From positions 2,376 through 66,375 of the forward strand of contig CAYSHC010000002.1 in assembly GCA_964430855.1 (NCBI GenBank): a stretch of 64,000 nt of DNA, read 5' to 3'. Shown in pieces: positions 9,614 to 59,460 of this stretch. A model generated the notes under the pieces. The model ran no database searches and had not been told where the DNA came from. It worked only from the letters and a program-made list of their open reading frames with translations. Position 1 is the stretch's first letter. Every line of letters starts with the position of its first letter. The translations under genes and the position numbers were made by a program. Source of the DNA: an uncultured Vicinamibacteraceae bacterium (GTDB lineage: Bacteria > Acidobacteriota > Vicinamibacteria > Vicinamibacterales > Vicinamibacteraceae).

Positions 9614-9627
9614 CCATTCCGTGACCG

Positions 9628-11658
9628 GTGACGGGCGCGTCCCGCCACCGGTCTCCTTTTCGTCCTGCCGGCCCCGGGCGGCGCGCTTCTCGCCTTGTGA
9701 AGGACCGTCGACAAGGGCAAGATGACCCGGTGGCCCCCGTCTTCGCGCCGTGCCGGCTCGTGGCGTCCCTCGTGGCGCTCCTTGCGTTCGCTGCCGGCGG
9801 CGTCTCGTACGGCCAGCCTGCCGGGGAACCTGCCACCCGCTACGTTCGCAGCCTCGACATCGTCGGGGCCGATGACATCGACGTCGATGACCTGAAGCGG
9901 GTCCTCAGGACGCGCGTCAGCAGCCGCCTCCCCGTCATCGGGCGCGATCGCGAGTTCAACCGCGAGGTCTTCCAGCAGGACCTCTACCGGATCGTCGCCT
10001 ACCTCTCCGACAACGGCTTCCCCCGGGCTCGCGTGACCCACGTCGAGATCCGCCCGCAGGCGCCCGACGGCGTCCGCCTGACGGTGCACGTGGATCCCGG
10101 CCCGCCCGTCATCGTCGATCGCGTCGACATCTACGGGTTCGGCGTCCTCGACGATGAGGATTACGCGGCGGTGGAAGAGCGTGTGCGCCTCAGGCCGGGC
10201 GAGCGCCGGCGCCAGGAACAGGTGCGCGAGACGCGCGCCGCCACCGTCGCCGTCCTCCAGGAGCGGGGCTACGCCCACGCGGCCGTCGAGGTCCTCGAGG
10301 GCGACGGGCGCGAGCCCGGCACCGTGGCGATGGCGGTGGTCGCCGACCCCGGGCCCCAGGCCACGTTCGGCCCGGTGACGGTGCGCGGCAACGGCAGCGT
10401 CAGCGAGGGCCGCGTGCGATCGCTGCTCGCCTTCCGCGAGGGCGAGGTCTTCAGGCTGTCGAAGCTGCTCGAGAGCCAGCGCCGGCTCTACAACCGCGAG
10501 ATCTTCCAGTTCGTCACGATCACGCCGACGCCGGGCCATCAGGGCACCGACACGGTACCGATCGACGTCACGCTGACCCAGGGCCGTTCACGCCGGGTCT
10601 CGGTCGCCCCCGGCTTCGGCAGTGAGGAGCGGGGCCGCGTCATGGCGACGCTGCGGCACCTCAACGTGTTCGGCGGCGCGCGCGTCGCGCAGCTCCAGAC
10701 GAAATGGTCGTCGCTCGATCGGGGGGCACGGGTGGGATTCGAGGAGCCGTCGCTCTTCCGGCGCGGCATCTCGATGAGCAGCTCGCTCCAGTACTGGTAC
10801 GCCGACGAGCCGGCGTACTCGCTGCTCACGAGTGGCGGCCGCGTGACGCTGGCACGCGAGCTGTCGCGCAGCGACCCGATCACCCGCAGCCAGGCGCTGA
10901 CGACGGTGTCGGTGTCGTTCGTGAACGAGTACGAGGACTACACGATCTCCGACGACGCGCTCCAGGACCTCACGTTCCGGGACGAGCTCATCGCGCTCGG
11001 CCTCGACCCCACGCGCGGCGCGGGCAACGGCACGCTGGCGGCCATCGGCTTCGACATCCAGCGCAACACGACGCAGAACCTGATCGATGCCAGGCAGGGT
11101 TACCTCGTCCGCGCCCACGTGGAACAGGCGGGGCAGTGGCTGCCCGGCGACTTCAACTACCGCGAGTACTCCACCGAGGGCCGTCTCTACGCCACGCTGT
11201 TCGGGCGCCTGGTGATGGCGGGGCGTCTGCGTCTCGCCACGATCGACGCGCCGGGACAGCTCGAGCCCAACGTGCCGTTCTTCAAGCGCTACTTCCTTGG
11301 CGGCGCCAGCAGCCTTCGCGGCTGGGGGCGGTTCCAGGTGAGCCCATTGAGCGGGTCGGGCCTGCCCATCGGCGGGCACTCGCTGTTCGAGTCGTCGCTC
11401 GAGGCGCGCCTGCCGCTCGTCGGCAACGTCGGGACGGTGTTCTTTCTCGATGCCGGCAACACGTGGCGCAACAGCTTCGAGCTGCACCTCGACGACCTGC
11501 GGTACTCGCTCGGCAGCGGGCTCCGCTACACCACGCCCATCGGCCCGGTGCGTTTCGACCTCGGCTATCAGCTCAACCCGATCGAAGGGCTCCTCGTGGA
11601 CGGCGAGCCACAGCCGCGCCGCTGGCGCATGCACTTCAGCATCGGACAGGCGTTCTGA
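9628..11658 (+). CDS. tamA: BamA/TamA family outer membrane protein (POTRA domains + Omp85 barrel)
   Basis: Omp85 C-terminal motifs (RYFLGGASSLRGW, GLRYTTPIGPVRFDLGY, terminal ...HFSIGQAF). Sits directly upstream of a TamB-like gene. The true start is probably internal (GTG at about 9730, giving signal peptide APVFAPCRLVASLVALLAFAAGG). Confidence 0.8.
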   Translation: MTGASRHRSPFRPAGPGRRASRLVKDRRQGQDDPVAPVFAPCRLVASLVALLAFAAGGVSYGQPAGEPATRYVRSLDIVGADDIDVDDLKRVLRTRVSSRLPVIGRDREFNREVFQQDLYRIVAYLSDNGFPRARVTHVEIRPQAPDGVRLTVHVDPGPPVIVDRVDIYGFGVLDDEDYAAVEERVRLRPGERRRQEQVRETRAATVAVLQERGYAHAAVEVLEGDGREPGTVAMAVVADPGPQATFGPVTVRGNGSVSEGRVRSLLAFREGEVFRLSKLLESQRRLYNREIFQFVTITPTPGHQGTDTVPIDVTLTQGRSRRVSVAPGFGSEERGRVMATLRHLNVFGGARVAQLQTKWSSLDRGARVGFEEPSLFRRGISMSSSLQYWYADEPAYSLLTSGGRVTLARELSRSDPITRSQALTTVSVSFVNEYEDYTISDDALQDLTFRDELIALGLDPTRGAGNGTLAAIGFDIQRNTTQNLIDARQGYLVRAHVEQAGQWLPGDFNYREYSTEGRLYATLFGRLVMAGRLRLATIDAPGQLEPNVPFFKRYFLGGASSLRGWGRFQVSPLSGSGLPIGGHSLFESSLEARLPLVGNVGTVFFLDAGNTWRNSFELHLDDLRYSLGSGLRYTTPIGPVRFDLGYQLNPIEGLLVDGEPQPRRWRMHFSIGQAF

Positions 11659-11664
11659 TTCGCG

Positions 11665-14600
11665 ATGGCCCTGACGCGCCGCCTGCTCCGGCTCCTGAAG
11701 CTGCTCACGCTCGTCCTCGTGGCGCTCGTCGTCGCGTCGCTCGTCGTGACGCAGACCCCCTGGTTCCGGGACTGGCTGCGGCGCACGGCCATGCGGCAGG
11801 CCGAGCGTGTGATCGACGGGCAGCTGATCATCGGCCGCATCGAGGGGACGCTCTTCACCGGGGTCGTGCTGCGCGACGTGTCGGTCGTGCAGGAGGGCGC
11901 GCCGGTCGTGAGCATCGACAGGGTCGAGGTGCGCTACGGACTCGGCGAGCTGCTCTCGGACGGGCGCGTCATCGGGCGACTGCACGTCGAGCGCCCCGTC
12001 GTCCGGGCGATCCGCACGCCCACCGGGTGGAACCTCGGCCGCCTGCTGCGGCCGCGCGCTCCCTCGCGCCCCGGCGCACCGCGTCCGACGTTCGCGCTCC
12101 CCGACATCACGGTCGAGGACGCGCGCGTCACCATCGAGGGCGCGGGCGCCGAGCCGGCCCGCACGTTGCCGCGGCGTATCGACGGCCTCAGCTTCCGGGG
12201 CGGCGTGACGAGCGGCGGCGAGACACTCGCCATCGACATCCGCGCGCTGCGGCTCGAGGCGGCGGAGCCCGACCTGTCGCTCGCCGACGTGCACGGCCGT
12301 CTCGTCAACGACACCGCGGGCTGGCACTTCGAGAACCTGCATGTGCAGACGGGCGACTCGGTCGTCGACGTGACCGGCGACCTCACGCGGACGGAAGAGG
12401 GCGGGCCGCTGACCTTCGCGCTCGACGTCGCCGGGTCGCCGGTGTCGCTACCGGAGGTTGGCCGCTTCCTGCCAGCCGTGGCAGCGATCGACGTGCGGCC
12501 ACGCTTCACCGCGCGCGTGGAAGGTCCGCTCGACGCACTGCGCGTCGACCTCCACATGTCGTCGGAGGCGGGCGACGTCAGGGGACCGGTGACGCTCGAC
12601 CTGCGCGGCCCCACGCGGTCGGTGGCGGCTGACGTGGACATCGCCGATATCGACCTCGCGCCCTGGCTCGACGACACGTTTGCCGAAGGGGCCATCACAG
12701 GGCACGCCCGCGTGAACCTCCGCTTCCCGTCGGCCACGCCAGGGGTCGCGCTCGACGGCGCCGCACACTTCGAGGGGCCGTCGGCCGGCGCCTACGGGTA
12801 CGCCGCACGCGACGTCGTCGCCGACGCGCGGTTCGTCGGCCGACGCATCGAACTCGTGGCGAGGGCTTCCGCATACGGCGGCCGCGCGACGACGCGCGGG
12901 TTCATCCAGCGGGCGGCACGTCCGGGCGAACGGCTGGTCCTCTCGCTTGCCGGAGACGTCTCGGACATCGACCTGCGGCAGCTCCCGCCGGAGCTGGCCG
13001 TGCCGCCGCTCGAGACGGCCATCACCGGCGCGTACACCGTGGAAGGGCCCGTCGGGCGCCTGCACCTTGCGGCGACGCTCGACGCGTCGGTGGTCGAGGG
13101 GGCGCACCTCGGCGACGGCTTCACGGGGGCGTTCCAGCAGGCCCCCGACGGCTATGCGTTCACGGCCGACGGCTCCGTTGCGGACCTCGATCTGCCGCGG
13201 CTCGGCCGCGCCCTCGAGCTCCCGGCGCTCGCGGACGAGCGGTGGGCGGGGCGAATCAATGGAACCTTTCGCGTGCAGGGCACGAAGGACGGCGACGCGC
13301 CGCTGCTCCTGACGGCCGCCGGAGAGCTGCGAGACACGCGCGTGTACGGTGGCCATGTGCCGCAGATGGCGGTTGACGCGCGCCTCTCCGGAGACGTCCT
13401 CGACGTCGTGGCAAGAGGCGCGGTGCAGGGCTACGACCTCGCGGCGGTCAGCGGCATCGAGGCGCTCACGGGCAACCTCACCGGCGACGTGGACGCGCGC
13501 GTGACGTTCCAGGACCTGCGCGACGTGGCGTTTGCCTCGGTGGACGTCGACGGCACGGTCACGTTGCGCACGCCGACGCTGCTCGACGTGCCCTTCACCC
13601 AAGTGGACGCCGACGTCGCGCTGACGGGCGGTGTGCTCGACGTGCGCCGCCTGCGGGGCACGGGCGACGGGTTCACGCTCACCGGAAAGGGCACCCTCGC
13701 GCTCGGCGAGGCCGGCGCCTCGGACTTCGCCTATGAGCTCGACGCTGCCTCGGTCGTCGGGCCGGCCCGGATCGCCGACCTGCCGCTGACGGGAGCGGTC
13801 ACGACGTCAGGGCGGATCACCGGCCCGCGCCAGGCCTTCCACGTCGAGGGCACGCTCGAGGGCGCGGACGTCGCGTACGAGGACGTCGTCCGCGCCGTGA
13901 CCGTCCAGGGGCGATATGCCATCGACCTCCCGGACCTGGAGCCCGATCGGCTGCGCGTCTCGTCGGAGGTGGCCGTCACCAAGGTGGACGTCGCCGGCGT
14001 CGGCCTCGAGTCGGCGCGGGGCACCGTTGGCTACACGCCCGACCTCCTGGCCTTCGACGTCGTGGCGACCGACGGCCCCCGTACGCTGCGCGGCGACGGC
14101 ACGCTGGCGCTGGCCGACGGCGCCCAGGTCCTCACGCTGAACCGCCTGGCGATCGAGCGGGAAGGCGTCAGGTGGGCGCTGGCGGGGGAAACGGCACCGG
14201 CGGCGCTCACGATCCGTCCCGACGCCGTCGACATCGTGCCGCTGACACTCGTGAGCGGGACGCAGCGCCTCAAGGTCGGCGGGCGTATCGCGCTGGCCGA
14301 CGAGGCGACGCACGCGCTCGACGTCGAGGCCTCCGCCGTCGATCTCGGCGAGGCGCTCGTCCTGGCCGCGCGCGACATCGACGCCGACGGCCTCGTCTCC
14401 CTGTCGGCACACGTCGGCGGTTCGGGCCGCCTGCCGACGGTGAGCGGCACGCTGGACGTCACGGGCGCGAGGTACCGGGACGTGCCCATCGCGCGCCTGC
14501 ACGCCACCGTCGAGAACGACGGCGGCGCCGCGCGGCTGGACGCGATCCTCCAGCAGAGCGACAGCGCCTACGTCACGGCAAGGGGCCGCGTGCCCCGGAC

Positions 14601-16167
14601 GCTCTTCCTGCCGCCCGACACGCCCGACGTGCCCACGTCGCTCGACGACACGCTCGACCTGACGATCCGCTCGTCCGCCATCGATCTGGCACTCGCCGGG
14701 GGCCTGACCGACCAGGTCGCGGATCTCGCGGGCACGGCGCAGCTGGACCTCCGCATGACCAACACCGGCAGGACGCCGGTCGTCGCGGGAGAAGTGACGC
14801 TCCAGCGTGCCGGGTTCCTCGTCGCGGCGACGGGCGTGCGCTACGAACCCATCGACGCCGTGCTGGCGTTCGACGACGACAGGGCCTTCATCAGGCGGCT
14901 CACCGCCGGTGCGCCGGGCGGCGCGATGCTCACGGCGGAAGGTGAGGTCGGGCTGCGCGGTGACGCCAAGGGACGGCTCGATCTCCGGTTCAAGGGTGAT
15001 GGCGTGCGTGCGCTCGACAACGAGCTCGGGCGCGTCGCGCTCGACGCCGCGCTGGCCGTCTCGGGCACGATCTATGCGCCCGTCGTCGAGGGCGACCTGC
15101 GGATCGCCAGCGGACGCGTGGAGCTCGACGCCCTGCTGCCGCGCCTTGCCATCGGCAGCTACGCCACCGAGGCCACCTACAGGGGGATCCCCACCTACAC
15201 CTCGCCGGATGCGCCGCCCATCGTGCCGGACATCCTGGCGCCGGACGTGCGTGACGCGGAGGTCATCTACGCCGTCCCGCCCGCGCCGGCGACGGACGCG
15301 CGTGCGGCCGCCAACGGGGACACGCCGGGCGACGCGGACGCGCAACCGCGACAGACCTTCGTGTACGAGGACATGGCGATGAACATCCGCGTGCGCATTC
15401 CCGACAACCTCCTCCTGCGCGGGCAGAACGTCGAGGTGGGGCGCAGCGGCATCGGCGACATCAACGTGACGATGGGCGGCGACTTCCGCATAGCCAAGAC
15501 CGCGGGCGAGCCCCTCGTGCTCATCGGCGCCGTGAACACCGTGCGCGGTACGTACGCCTACCAGGGGCGTCGTTTCGACATCGCGCGCGACGGCCAGGTG
15601 CTCTTCCGCGGCGACAGCACCTCGAACCCCGAGCTCGACATCACCGCCGAGCGTGTCATCCAGGGCGTCGAGGCACGCGTGCGCATCCAGGGCACCGTGC
15701 GCGATCCACGCATCAGCCTGTCGAGCGAGCCGCCACTCGACGAGGCCGACGTGCTCGCGCTCATCGTCTTCAACCAGCCCGTGAACCAGCTCGGGATCGG
15801 CCAGCAGAATTCGCTCGCCGAACGTGCGGGCGGCATTGCCGCGGGCCTGGCCGTGTCGCCGATCGCGCAGGCCCTGGGCAACACGCTGAACCTCGATCTG
15901 TTCGACGTCGAGACCACCGACACGACCGGCCGGGTCAACCCGGCGGTAGTCATCGGTGAGCAGGTGAACGAGCGCGTCTTCGTGAAGTTCCGCCAGCAGT
16001 TCGGCAACCAGGAGGTCTCGCAGTTCCTGCTCGAGTACCGGCTGGCCGACTATCTGCGGCTGCAGGCCAACGCCGCCGAGGGCGACGGGCTCACGCGAGC
16101 GAACCGGTCGCTCACGCAGCGGGTGGAGCGCTACGGGGCAGACCTGGTCTTCTACTTTGCATTCTGA
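11665..16167 (+). CDS. tamB: translocation and assembly module protein TamB (DUF490 C-terminus)
   Basis: 1500 aa with an N-terminal TM anchor (LLKLLTLVLVALVVASLVV) and long beta-rich repeats. C-terminal GEQVNERVFVKFRQQFG...LEYRLADYLRLQ is typical of TamB. Confidence 0.85.
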   Translation: MALTRRLLRLLKLLTLVLVALVVASLVVTQTPWFRDWLRRTAMRQAERVIDGQLIIGRIEGTLFTGVVLRDVSVVQEGAPVVSIDRVEVRYGLGELLSDGRVIGRLHVERPVVRAIRTPTGWNLGRLLRPRAPSRPGAPRPTFALPDITVEDARVTIEGAGAEPARTLPRRIDGLSFRGGVTSGGETLAIDIRALRLEAAEPDLSLADVHGRLVNDTAGWHFENLHVQTGDSVVDVTGDLTRTEEGGPLTFALDVAGSPVSLPEVGRFLPAVAAIDVRPRFTARVEGPLDALRVDLHMSSEAGDVRGPVTLDLRGPTRSVAADVDIADIDLAPWLDDTFAEGAITGHARVNLRFPSATPGVALDGAAHFEGPSAGAYGYAARDVVADARFVGRRIELVARASAYGGRATTRGFIQRAARPGERLVLSLAGDVSDIDLRQLPPELAVPPLETAITGAYTVEGPVGRLHLAATLDASVVEGAHLGDGFTGAFQQAPDGYAFTADGSVADLDLPRLGRALELPALADERWAGRINGTFRVQGTKDGDAPLLLTAAGELRDTRVYGGHVPQMAVDARLSGDVLDVVARGAVQGYDLAAVSGIEALTGNLTGDVDARVTFQDLRDVAFASVDVDGTVTLRTPTLLDVPFTQVDADVALTGGVLDVRRLRGTGDGFTLTGKGTLALGEAGASDFAYELDAASVVGPARIADLPLTGAVTTSGRITGPRQAFHVEGTLEGADVAYEDVVRAVTVQGRYAIDLPDLEPDRLRVSSEVAVTKVDVAGVGLESARGTVGYTPDLLAFDVVATDGPRTLRGDGTLALADGAQVLTLNRLAIEREGVRWALAGETAPAALTIRPDAVDIVPLTLVSGTQRLKVGGRIALADEATHALDVEASAVDLGEALVLAARDIDADGLVSLSAHVGGSGRLPTVSGTLDVTGARYRDVPIARLHATVENDGGAARLDAILQQSDSAYVTARGRVPRTLFLPPDTPDVPTSLDDTLDLTIRSSAIDLALAGGLTDQVADLAGTAQLDLRMTNTGRTPVVAGEVTLQRAGFLVAATGVRYEPIDAVLAFDDDRAFIRRLTAGAPGGAMLTAEGEVGLRGDAKGRLDLRFKGDGVRALDNELGRVALDAALAVSGTIYAPVVEGDLRIASGRVELDALLPRLAIGSYATEATYRGIPTYTSPDAPPIVPDILAPDVRDAEVIYAVPPAPATDARAAANGDTPGDADAQPRQTFVYEDMAMNIRVRIPDNLLLRGQNVEVGRSGIGDINVTMGGDFRIAKTAGEPLVLIGAVNTVRGTYAYQGRRFDIARDGQVLFRGDSTSNPELDITAERVIQGVEARVRIQGTVRDPRISLSSEPPLDEADVLALIVFNQPVNQLGIGQQNSLAERAGGIAAGLAVSPIAQALGNTLNLDLFDVETTDTTGRVNPAVVIGEQVNERVFVKFRQQFGNQEVSQFLLEYRLADYLRLQANAAEGDGLTRANRSLTQRVERYGADLVFYFAF

Positions 16168-16217
16168 CGCGCACTCGGGACGTGTCGGGAGCGGGCGACG
16201 CGCGAGGCGTGGAAGAC

Positions 16218-17510
16218 CTATTCGTAGTGCAGGGCCTTGACCGGATCGAGGCGCGCGGCCTTGCGCGCCGGATAGACGCCGAAGACGAGCCCCACGGCCA
16301 TTGACACGGTGAACGCGAGGATCACCGACGCCGGCGTGATGACCGTCGTCCAGCCGGCAAGGTACGCCACGGTGCGTGACAGGGCGACACCCACGACGAC
16401 GCCAATGAGGCCGCCTGCGCCCGAGATGATGATCGCCTCGATGAGGAACTGCCTGACAATCTCCGCCTGTGTCGCGCCGACGGCACGCCTGACCCCGACC
16501 TCGCGCGTCCGCTCCAGCACGCTGGCCAGCATGATGTTCATGATGCCGATGCCGCCCACGAGCAGCGAGATCGAGGCGATGGCCACCATCACCATCTGGA
16601 AGATGCGCTGCGTGCGCCGCTGCTCGGCCAGCAGCTCGGCCGGCACGATGACGCTGAAGTCGCCCGCCTGCCTGTGCGTTTCGTCGAGCAGGCCGCGCAC
16701 GGTGCGTGCCGAGGCCACCGATGCGTCCGCCGACCGGAGCTGGAGGTACAGGCCGTCGATCTCGTCGCGGTAGCCGCTCGTCGTGTCCTCGAGCCGGAGG
16801 ATGGCCGCCCAGAGCGGCACGTAGATCAGGCTGTTGCGGTCTTCGTTCGGCACGCCGTCCACGCTGCCGGGGGCGCTCATCTGGGGGCCGGTCACGCCGA
16901 TGACGCGGAACCACTGCTCGTTCACCTTCACGTACTCGCCGACGGCCGAGCGCCCGGTGAAGAGCCTGTCGGCGACGCTTTCGCCCAGCACGCACACCGG
17001 TGCGGCACGCTCGGCGTCCACCTCGTCGAAGAACCGTCCCTCGGCAACGTGCACGTTGGAGATCGTCGCGTAGCTTGGCGACACCCCGTAGACGATCGGC
17101 ATCTCGCGCCCGGGCCGCGGCAGCATGCTCGTCGGGGTGAAGCGCTTCCGCGCCGACGTCGCGACCACGCCCTCGACGTTGGCCTCGATGAGCCGCAGGT
17201 CGCTCAGTGTGAGCCCCGGCGACACCAGCCGCACCTTGCGCAACGACTGCCAGTCGGTCGCCTCGCGCGCCTCGACGATCAGGTTGCGGACGCCGAGGTT
17301 CTCGATGAAGGCCATCACCTGCTGCTGCGCGCCGGCGCCGATCGAGAGCATGGCCACGACGGCGGCCACGCCGCAGATCATGCCGAGCATCGTCAGCATC
17401 GAGCGCAGCTTGTTCACCAGCAGGTTGTCGAAGCCCATGCGCAGGTCGGGCACCAGCCTCTCGGCCAGGGCCGGGCGCGCCCGGCGACGTGACGGCGACG
17501 GCGAGGTCAT
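16218..17510 (-). CDS. MacB-type ABC transporter permease (MacB_PCD + FtsX), no ATPase domain
   Basis: 430 aa. The segments FDNLLVNKLRSMLTMLGMICGVAAVV, LLVGGIGIMNIMLASVLERTREVGVRRAVGA and YPARKAARLDPVKALHYE match this family. Confidence 0.9.
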   Translation of the reverse strand: MTSPSPSRRRARPALAERLVPDLRMGFDNLLVNKLRSMLTMLGMICGVAAVVAMLSIGAGAQQQVMAFIENLGVRNLIVEAREATDWQSLRKVRLVSPGLTLSDLRLIEANVEGVVATSARKRFTPTSMLPRPGREMPIVYGVSPSYATISNVHVAEGRFFDEVDAERAAPVCVLGESVADRLFTGRSAVGEYVKVNEQWFRVIGVTGPQMSAPGSVDGVPNEDRNSLIYVPLWAAILRLEDTTSGYRDEIDGLYLQLRSADASVASARTVRGLLDETHRQAGDFSVIVPAELLAEQRRTQRIFQMVMVAIASISLLVGGIGIMNIMLASVLERTREVGVRRAVGATQAEIVRQFLIEAIIISGAGGLIGVVVGVALSRTVAYLAGWTTVITPASVILAFTVSMAVGLVFGVYPARKAARLDPVKALHYE

Positions 17511-18793
17511 GACGGCCCCGCAGACGCCGTCGACGGCGCGGTCGCGGTCGGGCCGCTGGCGGGGGCGGCCTCGGGATCGACGAGGGCGACGTCCGCCGAC
17601 TCTTCGACGCCCTCGATCACGACGCGTGTCTGGGTGCGCGCGGCGACGGTCACCGGCACGGCGACGAAGCGCCCGTCACGCCGGACGAACACCGTCGGCA
17701 CGCCGGCCCTGTCGAACACGGCCTGCCGCGGGACGGAGAGCACGCCCTCCAGTGGCGCGCCGGCGATGTGGATCCGGGCGCTTCGCCCCGGCTCCACTTC
17801 GGCGACGGCGTCGGTGAGCTGGAGCGTCGCGTCGAACTCGCGCTGCGCCGTCGGCGCGCGCGAGAAGCCGCCGCGGTCGGCCATGCCCGACACGGAGGCG
17901 ACCCGCGCCTCGAGCGGCGGGTGCGTGGACCCGTCGAGGCGTACCTGCGCGGGCTGCCCTGGCTTCAGGTTCGTCGCCAGCGACTCGGCGACGCGGGCGC
18001 GCAGCTGCAGCTCGGACGGATCGAGAATCGTGAGCACGGGGCGGCCGGGGAACACGAGGTCGCCTTCGCGGAAGTCGGGCAGCGTCATGCCGGAATACCA
18101 GAATCCGCCGGCTGCATCCTGGTTCTGGCGGACGGCCACGAGCCCGTCGAACGGCGCGCGCACCTCCATCTGCTCGATCGCGCGGCGCGCCGTCTCGCGC
18201 GCGATCTCGGCCTTCTGCCGCTTCTCGAGCAGCACCGCGCGGGCCGCCTCGTTCGTCTCGCCGCGCGACTTGATGTCCTCCTCGAGTTGCACGAGCTTCC
18301 GCCGTGCCTCCTCGAGCGTCAGCTGATTCTTGCGCGCGTCGACTTCGGGCAGCAGCTCGTTGGTCGTGACGTCGAGCTCCGCGCGCCGCACCTCGAAGCG
18401 CGCCTTCAGCAGGTTCACTTCGTCCTCGGCGGCCTGCACCGCCCGGTCGGCCTCCTGCTTGGCCAGCTCCTGCTCGGTTTCGGCGACCTGCGACTCGGCC
18501 TGCTCGAGGTTGAAGAGCTGCTCGGCGGGGTCGAACCGCATCACCACGGCGCCAGCTCTCACGGCCGTTCCGGTCGGCAGCAGGTAGACGAGCCGCAGGG
18601 ACCCGGGCACCGCCGGCGCGGAGATGAGCAGATTGCGTTGCGCGGTGAACTCGCCGCTCGTGTGGATGTCGCCCACGAGGTCCCCGCGGGTGACGCGCGT
18701 TGTCGGCACGTCGGCCCTGGACGCGGCGCCGGCCGTGCACCCGGCGGTGGCCGCCAGGCCCGCGAGCAGCAGGGCAATGCCATCGGGTCTCAT
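17507..18793 (-). CDS. HlyD/MacA-family periplasmic adaptor (paralog 3, lipoprotein signal)
   Basis: ATG at 18793 gives MRPDGIALLLAGLAATAGC. It has a long coiled-coil hairpin and beta-barrel segments. ATGA overlaps occur at both ends. Confidence 0.85.
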   Translation of the reverse strand: MRPDGIALLLAGLAATAGCTAGAASRADVPTTRVTRGDLVGDIHTSGEFTAQRNLLISAPAVPGSLRLVYLLPTGTAVRAGAVVMRFDPAEQLFNLEQAESQVAETEQELAKQEADRAVQAAEDEVNLLKARFEVRRAELDVTTNELLPEVDARKNQLTLEEARRKLVQLEEDIKSRGETNEAARAVLLEKRQKAEIARETARRAIEQMEVRAPFDGLVAVRQNQDAAGGFWYSGMTLPDFREGDLVFPGRPVLTILDPSELQLRARVAESLATNLKPGQPAQVRLDGSTHPPLEARVASVSGMADRGGFSRAPTAQREFDATLQLTDAVAEVEPGRSARIHIAGAPLEGVLSVPRQAVFDRAGVPTVFVRRDGRFVAVPVTVAARTQTRVVIEGVEESADVALVDPEAAPASGPTATAPSTASAGPS

Positions 18794-20031
18794 CGGGTCA
18801 CCACCATCTCGGCCGCCGGCTCCACCAGCGCCACCTGCTCGCCAGGCACGAGGCCGGCCTGGATGGCCACCATCTCGTCGCTCCTGTGCGCGACGGCCAC
18901 CGGCCGGCGCTCGAAGGTGCCCCCGCGCCGGACGAACGCGACCGTCGCGCCGTCGCGCACGAACACGGCGCGCGCGGGCACCAGCACCTGGTCGGGGAGG
19001 CGCGCCAGCGCGACGCGGGCGTTGGCGCTCATGCCCGGCCGCAGCCGCTCGTCCACCTCGTCGAGCGCGACGACGACCTCGAAGCCGCGCTTCGGCGGCC
19101 ACGTGCTCATGTCCATCTTCGCCAGCGTGCTGATGCGCTCGATGCGCCCGTCCAGCGGCCTCCCGGCGATCGCGTCGATCGTCAGCGACGCCTGCTGGCC
19201 GACCGCCAGGCGGCTCCGGTCCACCTCGTCGACCGTCGTCACCATGCGGGCCGTGCTCAGGTCCGGCAGCTCGGCGATCTGGGCGCCGGGCCAGGCGCTG
19301 TCGCCCACCTGGAACGGACGGGCGCCCATGCCCATCTGGGAGGCGCGCCAGTTGTCGAGCACGACGAACACGCCGTCGCTCGGCGCGCGCACCGTCAGGG
19401 CTGTGACGCCACGCCGGGTGCGCTCGACTTCCGCGGCGGCCCGCTCCTGCTTGCCTTCGAGGCCCCGCACCGTGGCGGCTGTCACCTCGCGCCCGGTGTC
19501 AACCGTCGTGGACGACTCGACGAGGCGCTGCTGCGCGTCCGACAGCGAGAGCTGCGCCTTGCGCTCGTCGTAGCGCGACGAGAGCTCGCCGGCCCGTACG
19601 TCCAGGCGCGCACGCTCGACGTCGTACTGCGCCGTCAGCAGCGCCGTGGTGTACTCCTCGAGGGTGATGCGCCCTTCGGCAAACGCACGCGCGATCTCGG
19701 CCTCGGCCTCGCGGAGGGCCGACGACTTCTCCTGAAGCCTGGTGGTGAGCGAGGTCGGGTCGAAGCCGATGACGACGTCGCCGGCCTTGACCGGCGTGCC
19801 GTTGGCGGCAAGCTCCACGATCCGCAGCTCGCCGGCATCGGAGGGCGCCGTCAGCAGCACGGACCGCTGCGCCTGGACCTCGCCGCGGACAAGGAGCCGC
19901 TCGACGAACTCGCCGCGTGTCACCTCCGCCGTCTCGATGGCGGCCTCGACGGCGGTCATCCGTCCGAGCACCCACCACCCCGCCAGCGCGGCGCCGGTCA
20001 CGGCGATTCCGACCCAGACGCGGCGGGTCAT
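18790..20031 (-). CDS. HlyD/MacA-family periplasmic adaptor (paralog 2, N-terminal TM anchor)
   Basis: ATG at 20031 gives MTRRVWVGIAVTGAALAGWWVL. It has a coiled-coil hairpin and ...VRAPSDGVFVV. ATGA overlaps occur at both ends. Confidence 0.85.
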   Translation of the reverse strand: MTRRVWVGIAVTGAALAGWWVLGRMTAVEAAIETAEVTRGEFVERLLVRGEVQAQRSVLLTAPSDAGELRIVELAANGTPVKAGDVVIGFDPTSLTTRLQEKSSALREAEAEIARAFAEGRITLEEYTTALLTAQYDVERARLDVRAGELSSRYDERKAQLSLSDAQQRLVESSTTVDTGREVTAATVRGLEGKQERAAAEVERTRRGVTALTVRAPSDGVFVVLDNWRASQMGMGARPFQVGDSAWPGAQIAELPDLSTARMVTTVDEVDRSRLAVGQQASLTIDAIAGRPLDGRIERISTLAKMDMSTWPPKRGFEVVVALDEVDERLRPGMSANARVALARLPDQVLVPARAVFVRDGATVAFVRRGGTFERRPVAVAHRSDEMVAIQAGLVPGEQVALVEPAAEMVVTR

Positions 20032-21254
20032 GACGCCTGCCTCCCCGGTTGACGCCGCACCACCTCGCCCTCGCGGACGCCGTCGGCGACGACGGCCTCG
20101 GCGTCGGTCATGCCGGCGAGGGTGACGTGGCGCCACTCCGCGCCGACGAACACGCCCGGCGTGCCGTCACGCCACGTGACGGCATCGCGTGGCACCGTGA
20201 GCGCGTCGCGCCAGGCCGCCAGCTCCACGTCGACGGCCGCCGAGAGGTCGGGCGTCAGCACGTCGTCGCGTCCCTCGATCGCGAACATGGCCGTCAGGCT
20301 GCGCACCTTGTCGGACATGCCGCTCGGCACGGCCACCGGCGCGATGCCCTCGAGCGTGGCCCGGTACTCCCGGGCCGGATAGGCGTCCAGCGTGACGCGC
20401 GCCCGCTGGCCCACCTCCAGGCCATCGAGGTCGGCCTGGTTCAGCCGCACGCGCACCCGCATGGCCGTCTCGCCGACGACGTCGAGCAGGCCGAGGCCGC
20501 CGCGCACCTCCTCGCCTTCCTGCGGCTCGCCCATGCGCCCGTTCTTCCAGATCGAGCGCAGCACCACGAGGCCGGCGATGGGAGAGCGCACCGACAGCAG
20601 CTCCGCGTTGCGCTCGGCGTGGCGGAGGGCGCTCTCGGCCCGGTCGCGACGGATCTCCAGCGTCCGGCGCTCGGCCCGCTCGGCCAGCCGGCGGAGGGCG
20701 TTGGTCTGGCTGACCTGCGCGACCTCCGCTTCCGCGGCCTCGAGCGCGAGAAGGTTCTTCTCGGCTTCGATCCGCGGCAGCAGCGGGTTCTTCTCGACGT
20801 CGAGGCGCGCCAGGGCCAGCGCATTCTCGGCGGTCTTCAGCCGCGTGTCGTCCTTCACCGCCGCCTCGACGTGCTCGGCCTCGAGCCGCCGCACCTGCTC
20901 CTGGAGGTCGCGCCACTCGGCACGGCGCTCGAGGGCGGCGTCGAGCTGCGCCTGCCTGTCGAACTCGACGAGCACGTCGCCGACGTCCACGCGGGCGCCG
21001 TTGGCCACGAGCCTCGTGATGACCAGGTTCCCCTGGCCGGTCGTCTGCCCGCCGAGGCGGGGGACGACGACGGGGAGGGACGAAACGGCTTCGACGGTGC
21101 CGTGCAGACGGATCGCGTGGCGGACGTCGCGACGGGCGACGACCGCCTCCGGGCCGGCGGGCGGCACCGCGGCGTCCCTGACGGCCGGCGCGCTGCCGTC
21201 ACGACACCCAGGCGCCAGCGCGAGGCAGGCGAGCAGCAGGACTCTGGAGGACAC
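20028..21254 (-). CDS. HlyD/MacA-family periplasmic adaptor (paralog 1, lipoprotein signal)
   Basis: Starts MSSRVLLLACLALAPGC. It has a coiled-coil hairpin and ...VRSPIAGLVVL. 408 aa. Confidence 0.85.
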   Translation of the reverse strand: MSSRVLLLACLALAPGCRDGSAPAVRDAAVPPAGPEAVVARRDVRHAIRLHGTVEAVSSLPVVVPRLGGQTTGQGNLVITRLVANGARVDVGDVLVEFDRQAQLDAALERRAEWRDLQEQVRRLEAEHVEAAVKDDTRLKTAENALALARLDVEKNPLLPRIEAEKNLLALEAAEAEVAQVSQTNALRRLAERAERRTLEIRRDRAESALRHAERNAELLSVRSPIAGLVVLRSIWKNGRMGEPQEGEEVRGGLGLLDVVGETAMRVRVRLNQADLDGLEVGQRARVTLDAYPAREYRATLEGIAPVAVPSGMSDKVRSLTAMFAIEGRDDVLTPDLSAAVDVELAAWRDALTVPRDAVTWRDGTPGVFVGAEWRHVTLAGMTDAEAVVADGVREGEVVRRQPGRQAS

Positions 21255-21302
21255 GGGTATGGCCTGTAGACGATCTTGGACACCGAAAAGTTGGGTCTGG
21301 CG

Positions 21303-21881
21303 CTACGGGCCGGCCGTCGGGGGGATTCCGGTGCGCCGCCAGCAGGTCACGAGATGGTCGTCCACCATGCCGACGGCCTGCATGAACGCGTAACAGATCG
21401 TCGACCCGACGAAGGTGGCCCCGGCCTTCCGCAGGGCGCGGCTCATGGCGTCGGACGCGGGCGTCCGGACCGGCACCTCCCCAAGGGTCCGCCACTCGTT
21501 GACGACCGGTTCGCCGTCCACGAACCCCCAGAGGAAGGCGTCGAGCGACCCGTGGCGCTCGACCAGGTCGAGGACGGCGCGCGCGGTCTTCACGGCGCCG
21601 GCCACCTTCAGCCGGTTCCTCACGATGCCGGGATCGGCAAGGAGGCGGGCGATGTCGGCCTCGGTGAAGCGCGCCACGGCCTCCGGGTCGAAGCCGGCGA
21701 AGACCTCACGGTAGCGATCGCGCTTGCCGAGGATCGTGCGCCAGCTCAGGCCGGCCTGCGCGCCCTCGAGCACGAGCATCTCGAAGAGGCGGCGGTCATC
21801 ATGCACCGGCACCCCCCACTCCTCGTCGTGGTACCGGACGTAGAGCGGGTCGGTGCCGCACCAGGGGCAGCGTTCCGACAC
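21303..21881 (-). CDS. tag: DNA-3-methyladenine glycosylase I
   Basis: MSERCPWCGTDPLYVRYHDEEWGVPVHDDRRLFEMLVLEGAQAGLSW is the Tag signature. Confidence 0.93.
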   Translation of the reverse strand: MSERCPWCGTDPLYVRYHDEEWGVPVHDDRRLFEMLVLEGAQAGLSWRTILGKRDRYREVFAGFDPEAVARFTEADIARLLADPGIVRNRLKVAGAVKTARAVLDLVERHGSLDAFLWGFVDGEPVVNEWRTLGEVPVRTPASDAMSRALRKAGATFVGSTICYAFMQAVGMVDDHLVTCWRRTGIPPTAGP

Positions 21882-21891
21882 GCGTTACAGC

Positions 21892-22923
21892 CTACTTCGG
21901 AACGCGCAGCGTGCGGATGAACCTGTTGAGGAGGGCCTGATCGAAGTGGGTCGCGAGCCGGGTGCGCATCAACTGCAGCGCGTCGAACGGCCGCATCGCG
22001 CGCTGGTAGGTCCTGTCGCTCGTCATGGCGTCGAAGCAGTCGGCGATGGCGGCGATGCGCCCGAACAGGTGGATGTCGTCGCCCGACAGCCGTCGGGGAT
22101 AGCCGTCCCCCGTCAGCCGCTCGTGGTGCTGCGACACGGCGAGCATCCCGAGGCGGCCGACGCGCCCGGCTTCCTCGAGGATGTGCTCGCCGCGCTCGAC
22201 GTGGCTGCGCATGATCGCGAACTCCTCCTCGGTGTAGGCGCCCGGCTTGACGATCAGATCGCGCGGGATCTCGCTCTTGCCGATGTCGTGCAGCAGGGTG
22301 CCCAGGGCCAGCTCCTGGAGGTCGGTCGCGTCCTTCACGCCGGCCGCAAACGCCAGGCCCACCGCAAACACGCTGACGTTCATCGAATGGCGGACCGTGT
22401 CGTAGTCGTGGGCCATCAGGCTCGCCAGATGGCCCACGGCATCCGGCGTCCTGACGAGCAGCTGCACGGTCTGCTGCGCCACGCGGCGGGTCCGCGGCAC
22501 GACGTTGACATGGCGCGGCTCGGCCATCACCGACTCCAGCGTCGACTGCGCGGCCGACGACAGCAGTTCGGCCTTCCGGGACACCGGCACGAGCGGATTG
22601 GCCAGCAGCGTGTCCAGGTGGCGCTCGACGTACGACTCGTAGCGCCGGCGCTCGTCGCCGCGCAGCCAGAGCGTCTGCACGTTGTTCTGGAGCAGGCGCA
22701 GGTGGTGCTGGCTCTCGAACGGCAGGTCGGGGCCGCGGAAGAGCACGAAATGGCCGGGTGCGCTCTGGAGGTACAGGTGGAAGTTCACCACCGAGTCCAC
22801 CACCAGCCCGTCGAGGTGCACCGGGATGTACAGCGGGCGCACGTGGCCGTAGGCCGCCCGTACGGCGCCGGGCGGCGTCTCCGGAGTTCTCGGCTGGAAG
22901 CGGACGGGCAGCGGCAGCGCCAT
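21892..22923 (-). CDS. HD-GYP domain c-di-GMP phosphodiesterase with an uncharacterised N-terminal domain
   Basis: Contains LLHDIGKSEIP ... HHERLTGDGYPRRL (HD and GYP motifs). Confidence 0.88.
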   Translation of the reverse strand: MALPLPVRFQPRTPETPPGAVRAAYGHVRPLYIPVHLDGLVVDSVVNFHLYLQSAPGHFVLFRGPDLPFESQHHLRLLQNNVQTLWLRGDERRRYESYVERHLDTLLANPLVPVSRKAELLSSAAQSTLESVMAEPRHVNVVPRTRRVAQQTVQLLVRTPDAVGHLASLMAHDYDTVRHSMNVSVFAVGLAFAAGVKDATDLQELALGTLLHDIGKSEIPRDLIVKPGAYTEEEFAIMRSHVERGEHILEEAGRVGRLGMLAVSQHHERLTGDGYPRRLSGDDIHLFGRIAAIADCFDAMTSDRTYQRAMRPFDALQLMRTRLATHFDQALLNRFIRTLRVPK

Positions 22924-23089
22924 CGCGCGCGAAGCTCAGCAAGGCGCGTGCCGTGGTTTCCCGTGTGAACCGGGCAGACCCGGGCACCGGCCCCCGGCGC
23001 CGGTGACGAATCTGTCGCCCGCGCTGACGGAACTGTCGGTCGGCCCGCATGGTGAGCGCCGCGCGGGGCTCTGTTATCGTGAGGCGTAT

Positions 23090-24988
23090 ATGGCAGATGC
23101 GCAGGCTACCGAGACACAGGCCCCGCCTACGACGCTCCCGCGGCTGTACACCGCGGCCCACCTGCCTGCCCCCGACTACACCCGCCCGCTGCTCGAGGTC
23201 ACCGAGACGCAGCGCGAGCGGCTGCTCGGCATCCTCTCGATCCTCTACGGGCGCGAGGTGGCGGAACGCTGCTATCCCGAGCTCGAGCGCATCATGCGCG
23301 TCTACGACGCGCACTGCACCGACGAGATGCGCGAGGCCCGGCGGACGTTCGATCCCCGCACCCGCTTCTCCGAGCGCGACGTCGTCCTCATCACCTACGG
23401 CGACCTGCTGACATCACCGGGGCGCCTGCCGCTCCAGGTGCTGTCGGACTTCCTCCAGCGCTTCATGCGCGACACGATCAACGCGGTCCACATCCTGCCG
23501 TTCTTCCCGTATTCGTCCGACAGGGGCTTCTCGATCATCGACTACGAGGAAGTCGATCCGCGGCTCGGCTCGTGGCACGACATCGAGAAGATGGCGCAGT
23601 CGTTCCGCCTGATGTTCGACGGCGTCTTCAATCACGCATCCAGCAAGAGCCGCTGGTTCCAGCGCTTCCTCAACGGCCGGCCCGGCTACGAGGACTTCTT
23701 CGTCGCCTTCAGCACGCGTGACGCGATCTCGGACGACTACCTGCGGCTGATCCTGCGGCCGCGCACCTCCGACCTGCTGACGCCCTTCCACACGATCAAC
23801 GGCGTCCGTTTCGTCTGGACAACGTTCAGTCCCGACCAGGTCGACCTCAACTTCCGCAACCCGCAGGTGCTGCTGCGGGTGCTCGAGATCCTGCTGCTCT
23901 ACGTGCGCAGGGGCGCCGACATCATCCGCCTCGACGCGGTTACCTACATCTGGCGCGAGCTCGGCACCTCGTGCGCGCACCTGCGCGAGACGCACGCCCT
24001 CGTCCAGCTGTTCCGCGCGGTCCTCGACGTCGTGGCGCCGCACGTGGCGCTCATCACCGAGACCAACGTGCCGCATGCCGACAACATCAGCTACTTCGGC
24101 GACGGGCACAACGAGGCGCAGATGGTCTACAACTTCGCGCTGCCGCCGCTGGTGCTGCACACGATGCACACCGGCGACGTCTCGCGGCTGACCAACTGGG
24201 CGCGCACGCTGACCCACGTGTCCGACACGGCCACCTACTTCAACTTCCTGTCGTCGCACGACGGCGTCGGGCTGCTCGGGGCACGCGGCATCCTGACCGA
24301 CGACGAGATCCAGGCGCTCGTGGATCGGACGATCGAGCACGGCGGGTTCGTGTCGTACCGGTCGAACGGCGACGGCACCGAGAGCCCGTACGAGCTGAAC
24401 ATCGCCTGGTACAGCGCCCTGAACCGCGACGACGCCGGCGAGCCCGAGGCCCTCCAGGTGCGACGGTTCCTCGCGGCACGCTCCATCCCGCTGGCGATGC
24501 AGGGCGTGCCCGGCATCTACTTCCCGACCCTCTTCGGCGCGCGCAACGACACGGAGGCCGTGCTGCGCAGCAAGGAGAAGCGGAGCATCAACCGCCGTAC
24601 CTACGACGAGGCGACGCTGCTCAAGATGCTCGAGGACCCGGAGACGACCGTCTCGCAGGTGGCCCGGGGCATCCGGCGGCTGGTGCGCCGGCGGATCCAG
24701 CAGCCGGCGTTCCACCCGAACGCCGCCCAGACCATCCTTGACGCGGGTCGCCACACGATGGGCATCAAGCGCGTGGCCGCCGACGGCAGCCCGCTGCTTG
24801 CGCTGACGAACATGACGGCACAGACGCAGGAGGTGACGCTCGACCGCGAGGCCGTCGGCGTGTCGCCGGCCGCGTGGCGCGAGCTGATCTCGCGCGATCT
24901 CGTTCCCGACGGCGGTACCGGCCCGCTGCGTCTGACCCTCGAGCCGTATCAGGTCTGCTGGCTGGTGGAAGAGAAGGAGAAGAAGTGA
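23090..24988 (+). CDS. GH13 sucrose-phosphorylase-family sugar phosphorylase
   Basis: ATG at 23090. The segments INAVHILPFFPYSSDRGFSIIDY, ADIIRLDAVTYIW, LITETNVPH and FLSSHDGVG match GH13_18-type conserved regions. Confidence 0.82.
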   Translation: MADAQATETQAPPTTLPRLYTAAHLPAPDYTRPLLEVTETQRERLLGILSILYGREVAERCYPELERIMRVYDAHCTDEMREARRTFDPRTRFSERDVVLITYGDLLTSPGRLPLQVLSDFLQRFMRDTINAVHILPFFPYSSDRGFSIIDYEEVDPRLGSWHDIEKMAQSFRLMFDGVFNHASSKSRWFQRFLNGRPGYEDFFVAFSTRDAISDDYLRLILRPRTSDLLTPFHTINGVRFVWTTFSPDQVDLNFRNPQVLLRVLEILLLYVRRGADIIRLDAVTYIWRELGTSCAHLRETHALVQLFRAVLDVVAPHVALITETNVPHADNISYFGDGHNEAQMVYNFALPPLVLHTMHTGDVSRLTNWARTLTHVSDTATYFNFLSSHDGVGLLGARGILTDDEIQALVDRTIEHGGFVSYRSNGDGTESPYELNIAWYSALNRDDAGEPEALQVRRFLAARSIPLAMQGVPGIYFPTLFGARNDTEAVLRSKEKRSINRRTYDEATLLKMLEDPETTVSQVARGIRRLVRRRIQQPAFHPNAAQTILDAGRHTMGIKRVAADGSPLLALTNMTAQTQEVTLDREAVGVSPAAWRELISRDLVPDGGTGPLRLTLEPYQVCWLVEEKEKK

Positions 24989-59371: not shown

Positions 59372-59460
59372 TGGTGCCGAAGGCGGGGGTCGAACCCGCA
59401 CGATCCTTCCGGATCAACGGATTTTGAGTCCGTCGCGTCTGCCAGTTCCGCCACTTCGGC
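59372..59460 (-). tRNA. tRNA-Leu (anticodon CAA), CCA encoded
   Basis: Minus strand reads GCCGAAGTGGCGGAACTGGCAGACGCGACGGACTCAAAATCCGTTGATCCGGAAGGATCGTGCGGGTTCGACCCCCGCCTTCGGCACCA. It has a 7-bp acceptor stem, the anticodon loop CT-CAA-AA, a long variable arm and a GGTTCGA T-loop. Confidence 0.93.

Follow-up and report, generated by a model that had tools for sequence, protein, structure and literature searches.

How can three different periplasmic adaptor proteins serve a single ABC-type permease, when current models of tripartite pumps draw the adaptor ring as a homo-hexamer? The question is raised by a 64-kb stretch of DNA (hereafter the window) from contig CAYSHC010000002.1 of an uncultured Vicinamibacteraceae bacterium, in which four consecutive minus-strand genes running from 21254 to 16218 encode three MacA-like periplasmic adaptors and a MacB-type permease. 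Adaptor 1 (20028..21254; 408 amino acids (aa), GTG start; record P0121) has an N-terminal signal, adaptor 2 (18790..20031; 413 aa) an N-terminal transmembrane (TM) anchor, and adaptor 3 (17507..18793; 428 aa) is a predicted lipoprotein; the permease (16218..17510; 430 aa) has four TM helices and a periplasmic core domain and is without an ATPase domain. As the sequence-only reading of the window had described, and as direct inspection of the sequence bears out, the four genes are joined by three ATGA start/stop overlaps on the minus strand, from adaptor 1 to adaptor 2 (20028..20031), adaptor 2 to adaptor 3 (18790..18793), and adaptor 3 to the permease (17507..17510), in each of which the ATG that starts one gene overlaps the TGA that ends the gene before it. 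Our preferred answer, to which we give a probability of about 60%, is that these genes specify the core, spanning inner membrane and periplasm, of a MacAB-type (type VII ABC, mechanotransmission) trans-envelope exporter in which the three paralogues share one ring.

All three adaptors matched the Pfam families HlyD_3 (E-values 3.7e-6 to 8e-12, including 2.9e-10 for adaptor 1 and 8e-12 for adaptor 3; all scores above the cut-off) and HlyD_D23 (E-values 1.9e-6 to 4.3e-10, the latter for adaptor 2), the HlyD_D23 score of adaptor 1 being 27.8 bits, slightly below the family's 30-bit cut-off. Adaptor 2 additionally exceeded the cut-off of the NCBIfam model RND_mfp (E = 4.1e-31). Aligned pairwise over their full lengths, adaptors 1 and 2 are 29% identical, adaptors 1 and 3 29%, and adaptors 2 and 3 35% (E = 2e-26 to 2e-55), while the permease carries both MacB_PCD (E = 1.6e-40) and FtsX (E = 7.5e-21) domains in Pfam. 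The earlier proposal of three paralogous HlyD-type adaptors accompanying a MacB_PCD+FtsX permease thus stands, based on both domain matches and alignments. Adaptors of DevBCA and HlyD type I secretion systems were ruled out, because scores against DevB (TIGR02971) and type_I_hlyD (TIGR01843) were 20-43 bits, far under the respective cut-offs of 129 and 209, with no NCBIfam match to DevB for adaptor 3.

Predicted structures place the adaptors closest to MacA. AlphaFold2 models of adaptor 1 (mean predicted local distance difference test score, pLDDT, 90.9) and adaptor 2 (pLDDT 91.5) both display four domains and a long helical hairpin, formed by helices 101-154 and 161-219 (54+59 residues) in adaptor 1 and by helices 93-148 and 153-210 (56+58 residues) in adaptor 2, the latter preceded by a TM helix at residues 6-22. 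Judging from its gap-free alignment to the other two, adaptor 3 would likewise be a full-length four-domain protein with an equal hairpin. The top Foldseek matches were MacA chains in MacAB-TolC (9qgy_G and 5nik_D), and in sequence searches the adaptor profile also matched MacA best (E = 4.8e-31). The hairpin measures 123 residues in each of the three paralogues, without indels among them, and across 14 genomes its sole length change is a 2-residue insertion at position 2 of locus L026. Hairpin tips are conserved with position-specific residues, the tip at position 2 being unlike those at positions 1 and 3, and they carry a conserved motif other than the RLS motif (RxxxLxxxxxxS) by which adaptor hairpin tips dock to TolC (PMC3391258).

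The sequence-only reading had also pointed to mixed anchoring modes, which holds for the window only in part. Adaptor 2 has its TM helix and adaptor 3 a canonical lipobox (ATAGC), and for adaptor 1 a lipoprotein is only plausible, as its candidate lipobox (LAPGC) has a non-canonical proline at -2; the same PGC is found in the L004 orthologue. Two cysteines lie within the adaptor 1 signal peptide (21204-21254). Among orthologues, position 2 is TM-anchored in all core loci, positions 1 and 3 alternate between a lipobox and a TM or signal anchor, and the gammaproteobacterial versions have lipoproteins at positions 2 and 3. Mixed anchoring was therefore rejected as a design feature, the anchor type being labile across orthologues.

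To place this cluster in a broader context, we scanned one genome per GTDB species with an alignment of the permease and annotated 80 loci with purpose-built hidden Markov models. Permease homologues were named Luteitalea or Vicinamibacteraceae, and four orthologous loci (permeases 69-87% identical) consist of three adaptor-sized genes and a permease, with no adjacent ATPase gene. The layout is conserved across several phyla: three adaptor genes followed by a permease gene were found in many classes of Acidobacteriota, in Gammaproteobacteria (Shewanella hanedai, Rheinheimera, a Lysobacterales metagenome-assembled genome (MAG), and Aerolutibacter ruishenii), and in Bacteroidota (Flavobacteriales, Proteiniphilum, and a Bacteroidales MAG). 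A MacB/LolD-type ATPase gene precedes the adaptors in L019, L043, L073, and the Aminicenantes locus L023; these four adjoining ATPases are closest to the nucleotide-binding domain (NBD) of MacB (E = 6e-78). In Proteiniphilum the order is three adaptors, permease, ATPase, and outer-membrane factor (OMF). Permeases below ~40% identity are accompanied by one adaptor only. The tight junctions of the window are also kept in relatives, with 4-bp overlaps at 37 and 1-bp overlaps at 7 of the 78 junctions across 26 loci, and since relatives keep the same gene order, the layout is more than chance. Four of five gammaproteobacterial or Flavobacteriales loci (L016, L018, L019, and L043) have a short position-1 adaptor of 313-345 aa, against 388 aa in the fifth (L073), and L021 8976-9977 is grouped with these short adaptors. 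In L019, the RND_mfp match of the short adaptor stops at about model position 246 of 322, and this protein seems to be without the C-terminal membrane-proximal domain.

In a neighbour-joining (NJ) tree of permeases, a 28-member clade (bootstrap 90) unites every three-adaptor locus of the acidobacterial core and of "group 2"; the only other members are loci cut by a contig end. Once loci with fused adaptors (described below) are added, the clade comprises 41 members (bootstrap 96) from Acidobacteriota, Gammaproteobacteria, and one Flavobacteriales genome, and three adaptor modules are present in nearly all members whose upstream DNA is long enough to tell. At L017 the C-terminus of a third adaptor is visible at the contig edge; at L031 the contig edge (1-330), which directly precedes the adaptor genes, is made up of a tandemly repeated 18-bp unit whose translation gives repeats of KSTVAM, probably an assembly boundary hiding whether a third adaptor exists. 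Each position has in addition its own identity. Among 14 core loci, 544 of 546 cross-genome best matches fell on the positional diagonal, and in the adaptor NJ tree positions 1, 2, and 3 of these 14 acidobacterial genomes formed separate clades (bootstrap 95, 97, and 98, respectively). For group 2, position clades were recovered with bootstraps of 96 (position 3) and 71 (position 2), the position 1 clade being weak. A single origin of the triplication is suggested by the permease tree as the more parsimonious history of this clade. A separate triplication is suggested for the Bacteroidales loci L021 and L051, whose permeases fall outside the clade and whose adaptors group with one another and with single-adaptor outgroups; both operons include an OMF, L021 also having a confirmed ATPase gene.

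The three window adaptors do not resemble products of a decaying duplication. Compared to the closest relative, ratios of non-synonymous to synonymous substitution rates (dN/dS) were 0.24 for adaptor 1, 0.22 for adaptor 2, 0.20 for adaptor 3, and 0.14 for the permease, which indicates that all three adaptors are intact and under purifying selection. Pseudogenisation of the extra copies, which would have undercut the idea of a three-adaptor assembly, is thus not what the window contains.

Some homologues link neighbouring adaptors covalently. Adaptor 2 was scanned against 1.84 billion representative proteins, yielding 22,537 homologues, of which the best 150 were examined for fusions. Thirty of these 150 were long proteins with at least two matched stretches, and 18 were clean fusions of two modules behind a single N-terminal signal, lacking any internal anchor; 3 frameshift merges and 9 single adaptors with a long low-complexity insert were left out of the fusion count. 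Inserts of 150-300 residues rich in G, Q, R, A, and P, located between the beta-barrel and the C-terminal membrane-proximal domain, were seen in some adaptor homologues (P0262, P0263, P0267, P0299, P0321, P0325, P0327, P0342, P0389; L006 5105-6904 and 8287-9996). Gene contexts for the main fusion family, taken from metagenomes, revealed the order two-module fusion, single adaptor, permease in the 11 fusion loci whose flanking DNA was long enough, i.e., again three modules per permease, and the permeases of this family nest within the three-adaptor clade. The C-terminal module of the fusion matches position 2, and the single adaptor that follows matches position 3, in 7/7 mapped loci each, and the N-terminal module matches position 1 in 5/7. 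Unrelated to this clade, L033 has the order OMF, adaptor, adaptor-adaptor fusion, ATPase, permease, so that here modules 2 and 3 are fused.

These fusions bear directly on the ratio of the adaptors. The sequence-only reading had taken the ATGA overlaps to suggest stoichiometric co-translation; translational coupling is indeed indicated, but 4-bp overlaps alone do not imply stoichiometry, and natural adaptor fusions are better evidence for fixed ratios, since fused neighbours are held at 1:1 by being one polypeptide. A fusion of positions 1 and 2 in one lineage and of 2 and 3 in another is what a 1-2-3 ring order would allow, and such fusions are hard to reconcile with three separate homo-hexamers.

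The second part of the question is what the adaptors would be attached to. The best solved relatives of the permease are MacB structures (5lil, E = 6.5e-52 over residues 17-428; 5gko; 5nik), and among NCBIfam models the C-terminal, permease half of MacB was matched below threshold. Its coupling-helix motif, ERTREVGVRRAVGA, is conserved; this helix, located between TM2 and TM3 where the NBD docks, is nearly invariant (ERTREIGxRRAxGA) in orphan and ATPase-linked permeases alike. In the 64-kb window, no open reading frame contained both a Walker A motif (GxxGxGK[ST]) and an ABC signature (LSGGQ), and tblastn searches with three cognate ATPases and with one OEP (OMF) sequence gave no match. Because ATPase and OMF are both absent from the window, the pump activity of the cluster is only inferred. 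Fusion-family loci likewise have no ATPase within 10 kb. Since the coupling helix is equally conserved whether or not an ATPase is linked, the motor is probably supplied in trans, and with ATPases of this type being 57-62% identical across phyla, orthology can be assigned only from a whole genome. The duplicated orphan permease ADOP was ruled out as an identity for the window permease: against TIGR03434, which we take to model ADOP, an acidobacterial orphan duplicated permease of the FtsX family, it scored 148 bits versus a cut-off of 622.3 bits, and it is a single 430-aa unit, not duplicated. In the closest relative (L084 11302-12567; also in L085), the permease gene is directly followed by another of the MacB_PCD/FtsX type, 31% identical to it. 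The L084 permease is 87% identical to that of the window, where the 50 bp between the permease and TamB stops leave no room for a second permease.

We propose a model in which the three adaptors would co-assemble in one ring, in the simplest case a hetero-hexamer with two copies of each in the order 1-2-3-1-2-3 on a permease dimer, with each paralogue specialised for one of three non-equivalent ring positions. This (A1A2A3)x2 arrangement is proposed because six ring members set on a two-fold symmetric dimer fall into exactly three non-equivalent positions, and it may, by analogy, parallel TriA3TriB3 on a trimeric resistance-nodulation-division (RND) pump. The stoichiometry of MacAB-TolC is MacA6:MacB2:TolC3 (PMC5595328; PMC11905320). 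Genes outside the window would supply the motor, an ATPase of MacB/LolD type, and the exit duct, a channel of the TolC family; the substrate would probably be taken from the periplasm or the outer leaflet, as by MacB. We infer physical co-assembly from purifying selection, joint retention across phyla, and fusions; the earlier suggestion of an unusual hetero-oligomer of three distinct adaptors on one MacB-type permease is supported as far as comparative genomics reaches. More tentatively, and with odds we would place somewhat short of even, three-adaptor sets might have evolved in answer to the 6:2 mismatch in symmetry within MacAB-type pumps, with each paralogue position-specialised in a 1-2-3-1-2-3 ring. 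Such sets would have originated repeatedly, in Bacteroidales, the L033 lineage, and the Acidobacteriota/Gammaproteobacteria clade, and would be partly hard-wired by fusion, relying in Acidobacteria and the fusion family on an ATPase supplied in trans and possibly shared among many orphan permeases.

Several observations weigh against a shared ring of position-specialised adaptors. The 64-kb window encodes no ATPase and no OMF, and no core acidobacterial locus has an ATPase within 10 kb. The canonical RLS motif is absent from all three hairpin tips, and its occurrence in 2/42 tip regions is at chance level. Divergence among the paralogues is spread over all domains and not concentrated in those contacting the permease: identities within orthologues versus between paralogues gave ratios of 1.3-1.6 throughout (membrane-proximal, barrel, lipoyl, and hairpin domains), although with one position-specific conserved column only, this per-domain comparison is non-discriminating. 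The adaptor NJ tree joins the three core paralogues (bootstrap 90), which would imply separate triplications in the core and group 2 loci, contrary to the single ancient triplication drawn from the permease tree; a tree artefact, gene conversion, or repeated triplication are possible sources of this conflict. Finally, the tandem permease genes of the closest relative suggest a permease heterodimer there, which would break the two-fold symmetry argument.

Other readings of the cluster must be weighed. The paralogues could have unequal roles, one or two of them forming the OMF-docking ring and the third being a peripheral accessory or regulatory protein, with a stoichiometry other than 2:2:2. 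The short position-1 adaptor in 4/5 group 2 loci, including the L019 protein that apparently is without its C-terminal membrane-proximal domain, would fit such a division of labour, as would the distinct tip at position 2 and the non-equivalent roles of TriA and TriB noted in a recent review (PMC13328181). Nonetheless, we consider this rather unlikely, as the window adaptors all appear to be full-length four-domain proteins with equal hairpins (adaptors 1 and 2 as modelled, adaptor 3 via the gap-free alignment), and no feature marks any of them as peripheral. We regard it as unlikely, too, that the adaptors are alternatives, i.e., separate homo-hexamers each linking the shared permease to a different outer-membrane channel or substrate. 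The cluster encodes no OMF, so the choice of partner is open, and the position-specific tip residues could reflect distinct OMF partners; however, interchangeable rings are difficult to square with a neighbour fusion that, within the same clade, fixes two of the adaptors at 1:1 in one polypeptide, with the retention of all paralogues (no single-paralogue loss was seen across phylum-level divergence), with tight translational coupling, and with identical hairpin lengths.

The cluster might also not be a pump at all, acting instead as an envelope complex that transports nothing (for example a scaffold or a mechanotransducer resembling FtsEX), or persisting as a non-functional remnant. Orphan FtsX-type permeases are known from Acidobacteria, the window permease has a sub-threshold match to the ADOP model TIGR03434, and ATPase and OMF genes are missing from the window and from the vicinity of core acidobacterial orthologues. 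A remnant is nevertheless hard to maintain with all four genes under purifying selection, and the full conservation of the NBD-coupling helix, the MacB-type ATPase adjoining same-clade members in other phyla, and the OMF sharing an operon with three-module systems outside the clade all argue for transport; we judge this option very improbable. An exporter with three paralogues in one ring remains the reading we prefer.

The surrounding genes do not appear to be parts of this system. Convergent with the cluster lie genes for TamA (Omp85/POTRA; 9625-11658) and TamB (11665-16167), and upstream on the same strand as the cluster are those for a 3-methyladenine glycosylase (Tag; 21303-21881) and for a protein with an HD domain (21892-22923). 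Synteny of TamAB and of the HD-domain gene extends no further than the closest relatives, and Tag is also found near the more distant core locus L014. All four neighbours were rejected as components because synteny shared only with closest relatives (and L014 for Tag) is incidental. In L001 (11302-17883), one called product of 2193 aa combines Omp85 and TamB domains, and may be a fusion or a merge. A scan of 15900-23200 for promoters and terminators found none, which is uninformative at the ~71% GC content of the window and in an acidobacterium. The sole Rfam match in the window at the gathering threshold is a tRNA gene (59375-59460, minus strand).

Taken together, strong comparative evidence points to a real, conserved, and apparently uncharacterised variant of MacAB-type pumps. 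The layout is common, and no description of a three-adaptor ABC-type pump was found in full-text literature or reviews, although most subscription journals lay outside this coverage, so that this absence is not proof. In a 2026 review, TriAB is still the single cited case of distinct adaptors (PMC13328181). NCBIfam covers the adaptors with generic models only, and no component has a model of its own, gammaproteobacterial and Bacteroidales versions included; current annotations of this unnamed family stop at "HlyD family secretion protein" or "ABC transporter permease". A widespread three-adaptor system with natural fusions provides a genetic handle on how six adaptor protomers apportion their contacts and signalling with a two-fold ABC permease on one side and a three-fold outer-membrane channel on the other, as each ring position could be mutated separately. 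It also raises the question of how MacB-type permeases without a linked ATPase gene are powered in Acidobacteria, a dominant soil phylum.

Among characterised systems, MacAB-TolC of E. coli shares with the window cluster the permease fold and domain order (MacB_PCD and FtsX, four TM helices), the coupling helix, and an adaptor, MacA, which is the closest relative of the window adaptors in both sequence and structure, with four domains and a long hairpin. Unlike MacAB, however, the window encodes three paralogous adaptors instead of one, has neither a fused or linked ATPase nor an OMF, and its adaptors carry another conserved tip motif in place of RLS. Systems in which a MacB-like permease is separate from its ATPase include VarACDEF of Vibrio cholerae, LitOPAI of Legionella, and Spr0693-0695 of S. 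pneumoniae (PMC5595328; PMC11559062; PDB 5xu1), but these have one functional adaptor and encode the ATPase in the operon. We accordingly rejected as equivalents both V. cholerae VarABCDEF, which has one adaptor and a 40-aa remnant, VarB (PMC5595328), and LitOPAI, which has one adaptor (PMC11559062). ADOP (TIGR03434) and the window permease are alike in being acidobacterial permeases of FtsX type with no ATPase gene next to them, whereas the latter is a single unit accompanied by three adaptors. The TriABC-OpmH pump of P. aeruginosa likewise has tandem paralogous adaptor genes upstream of the transporter that are retained together, with distinct adaptors in non-equivalent ring positions, as proposed for the window system. 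TriA and TriB are 36% identical (PMC13328181), similar to the 29-35% among the window adaptors. That no paralogue loss was seen across the three-adaptor clade lends indirect support to each adaptor being individually required, with a role of its own. TriABC-OpmH, however, pairs two adaptors in a 3+3 ring with a trimeric RND transporter, whereas the window system would combine a MacB-type ABC permease, presumably a dimer, with a 2+2+2 ring of MacA-like rather than RND-type adaptors.

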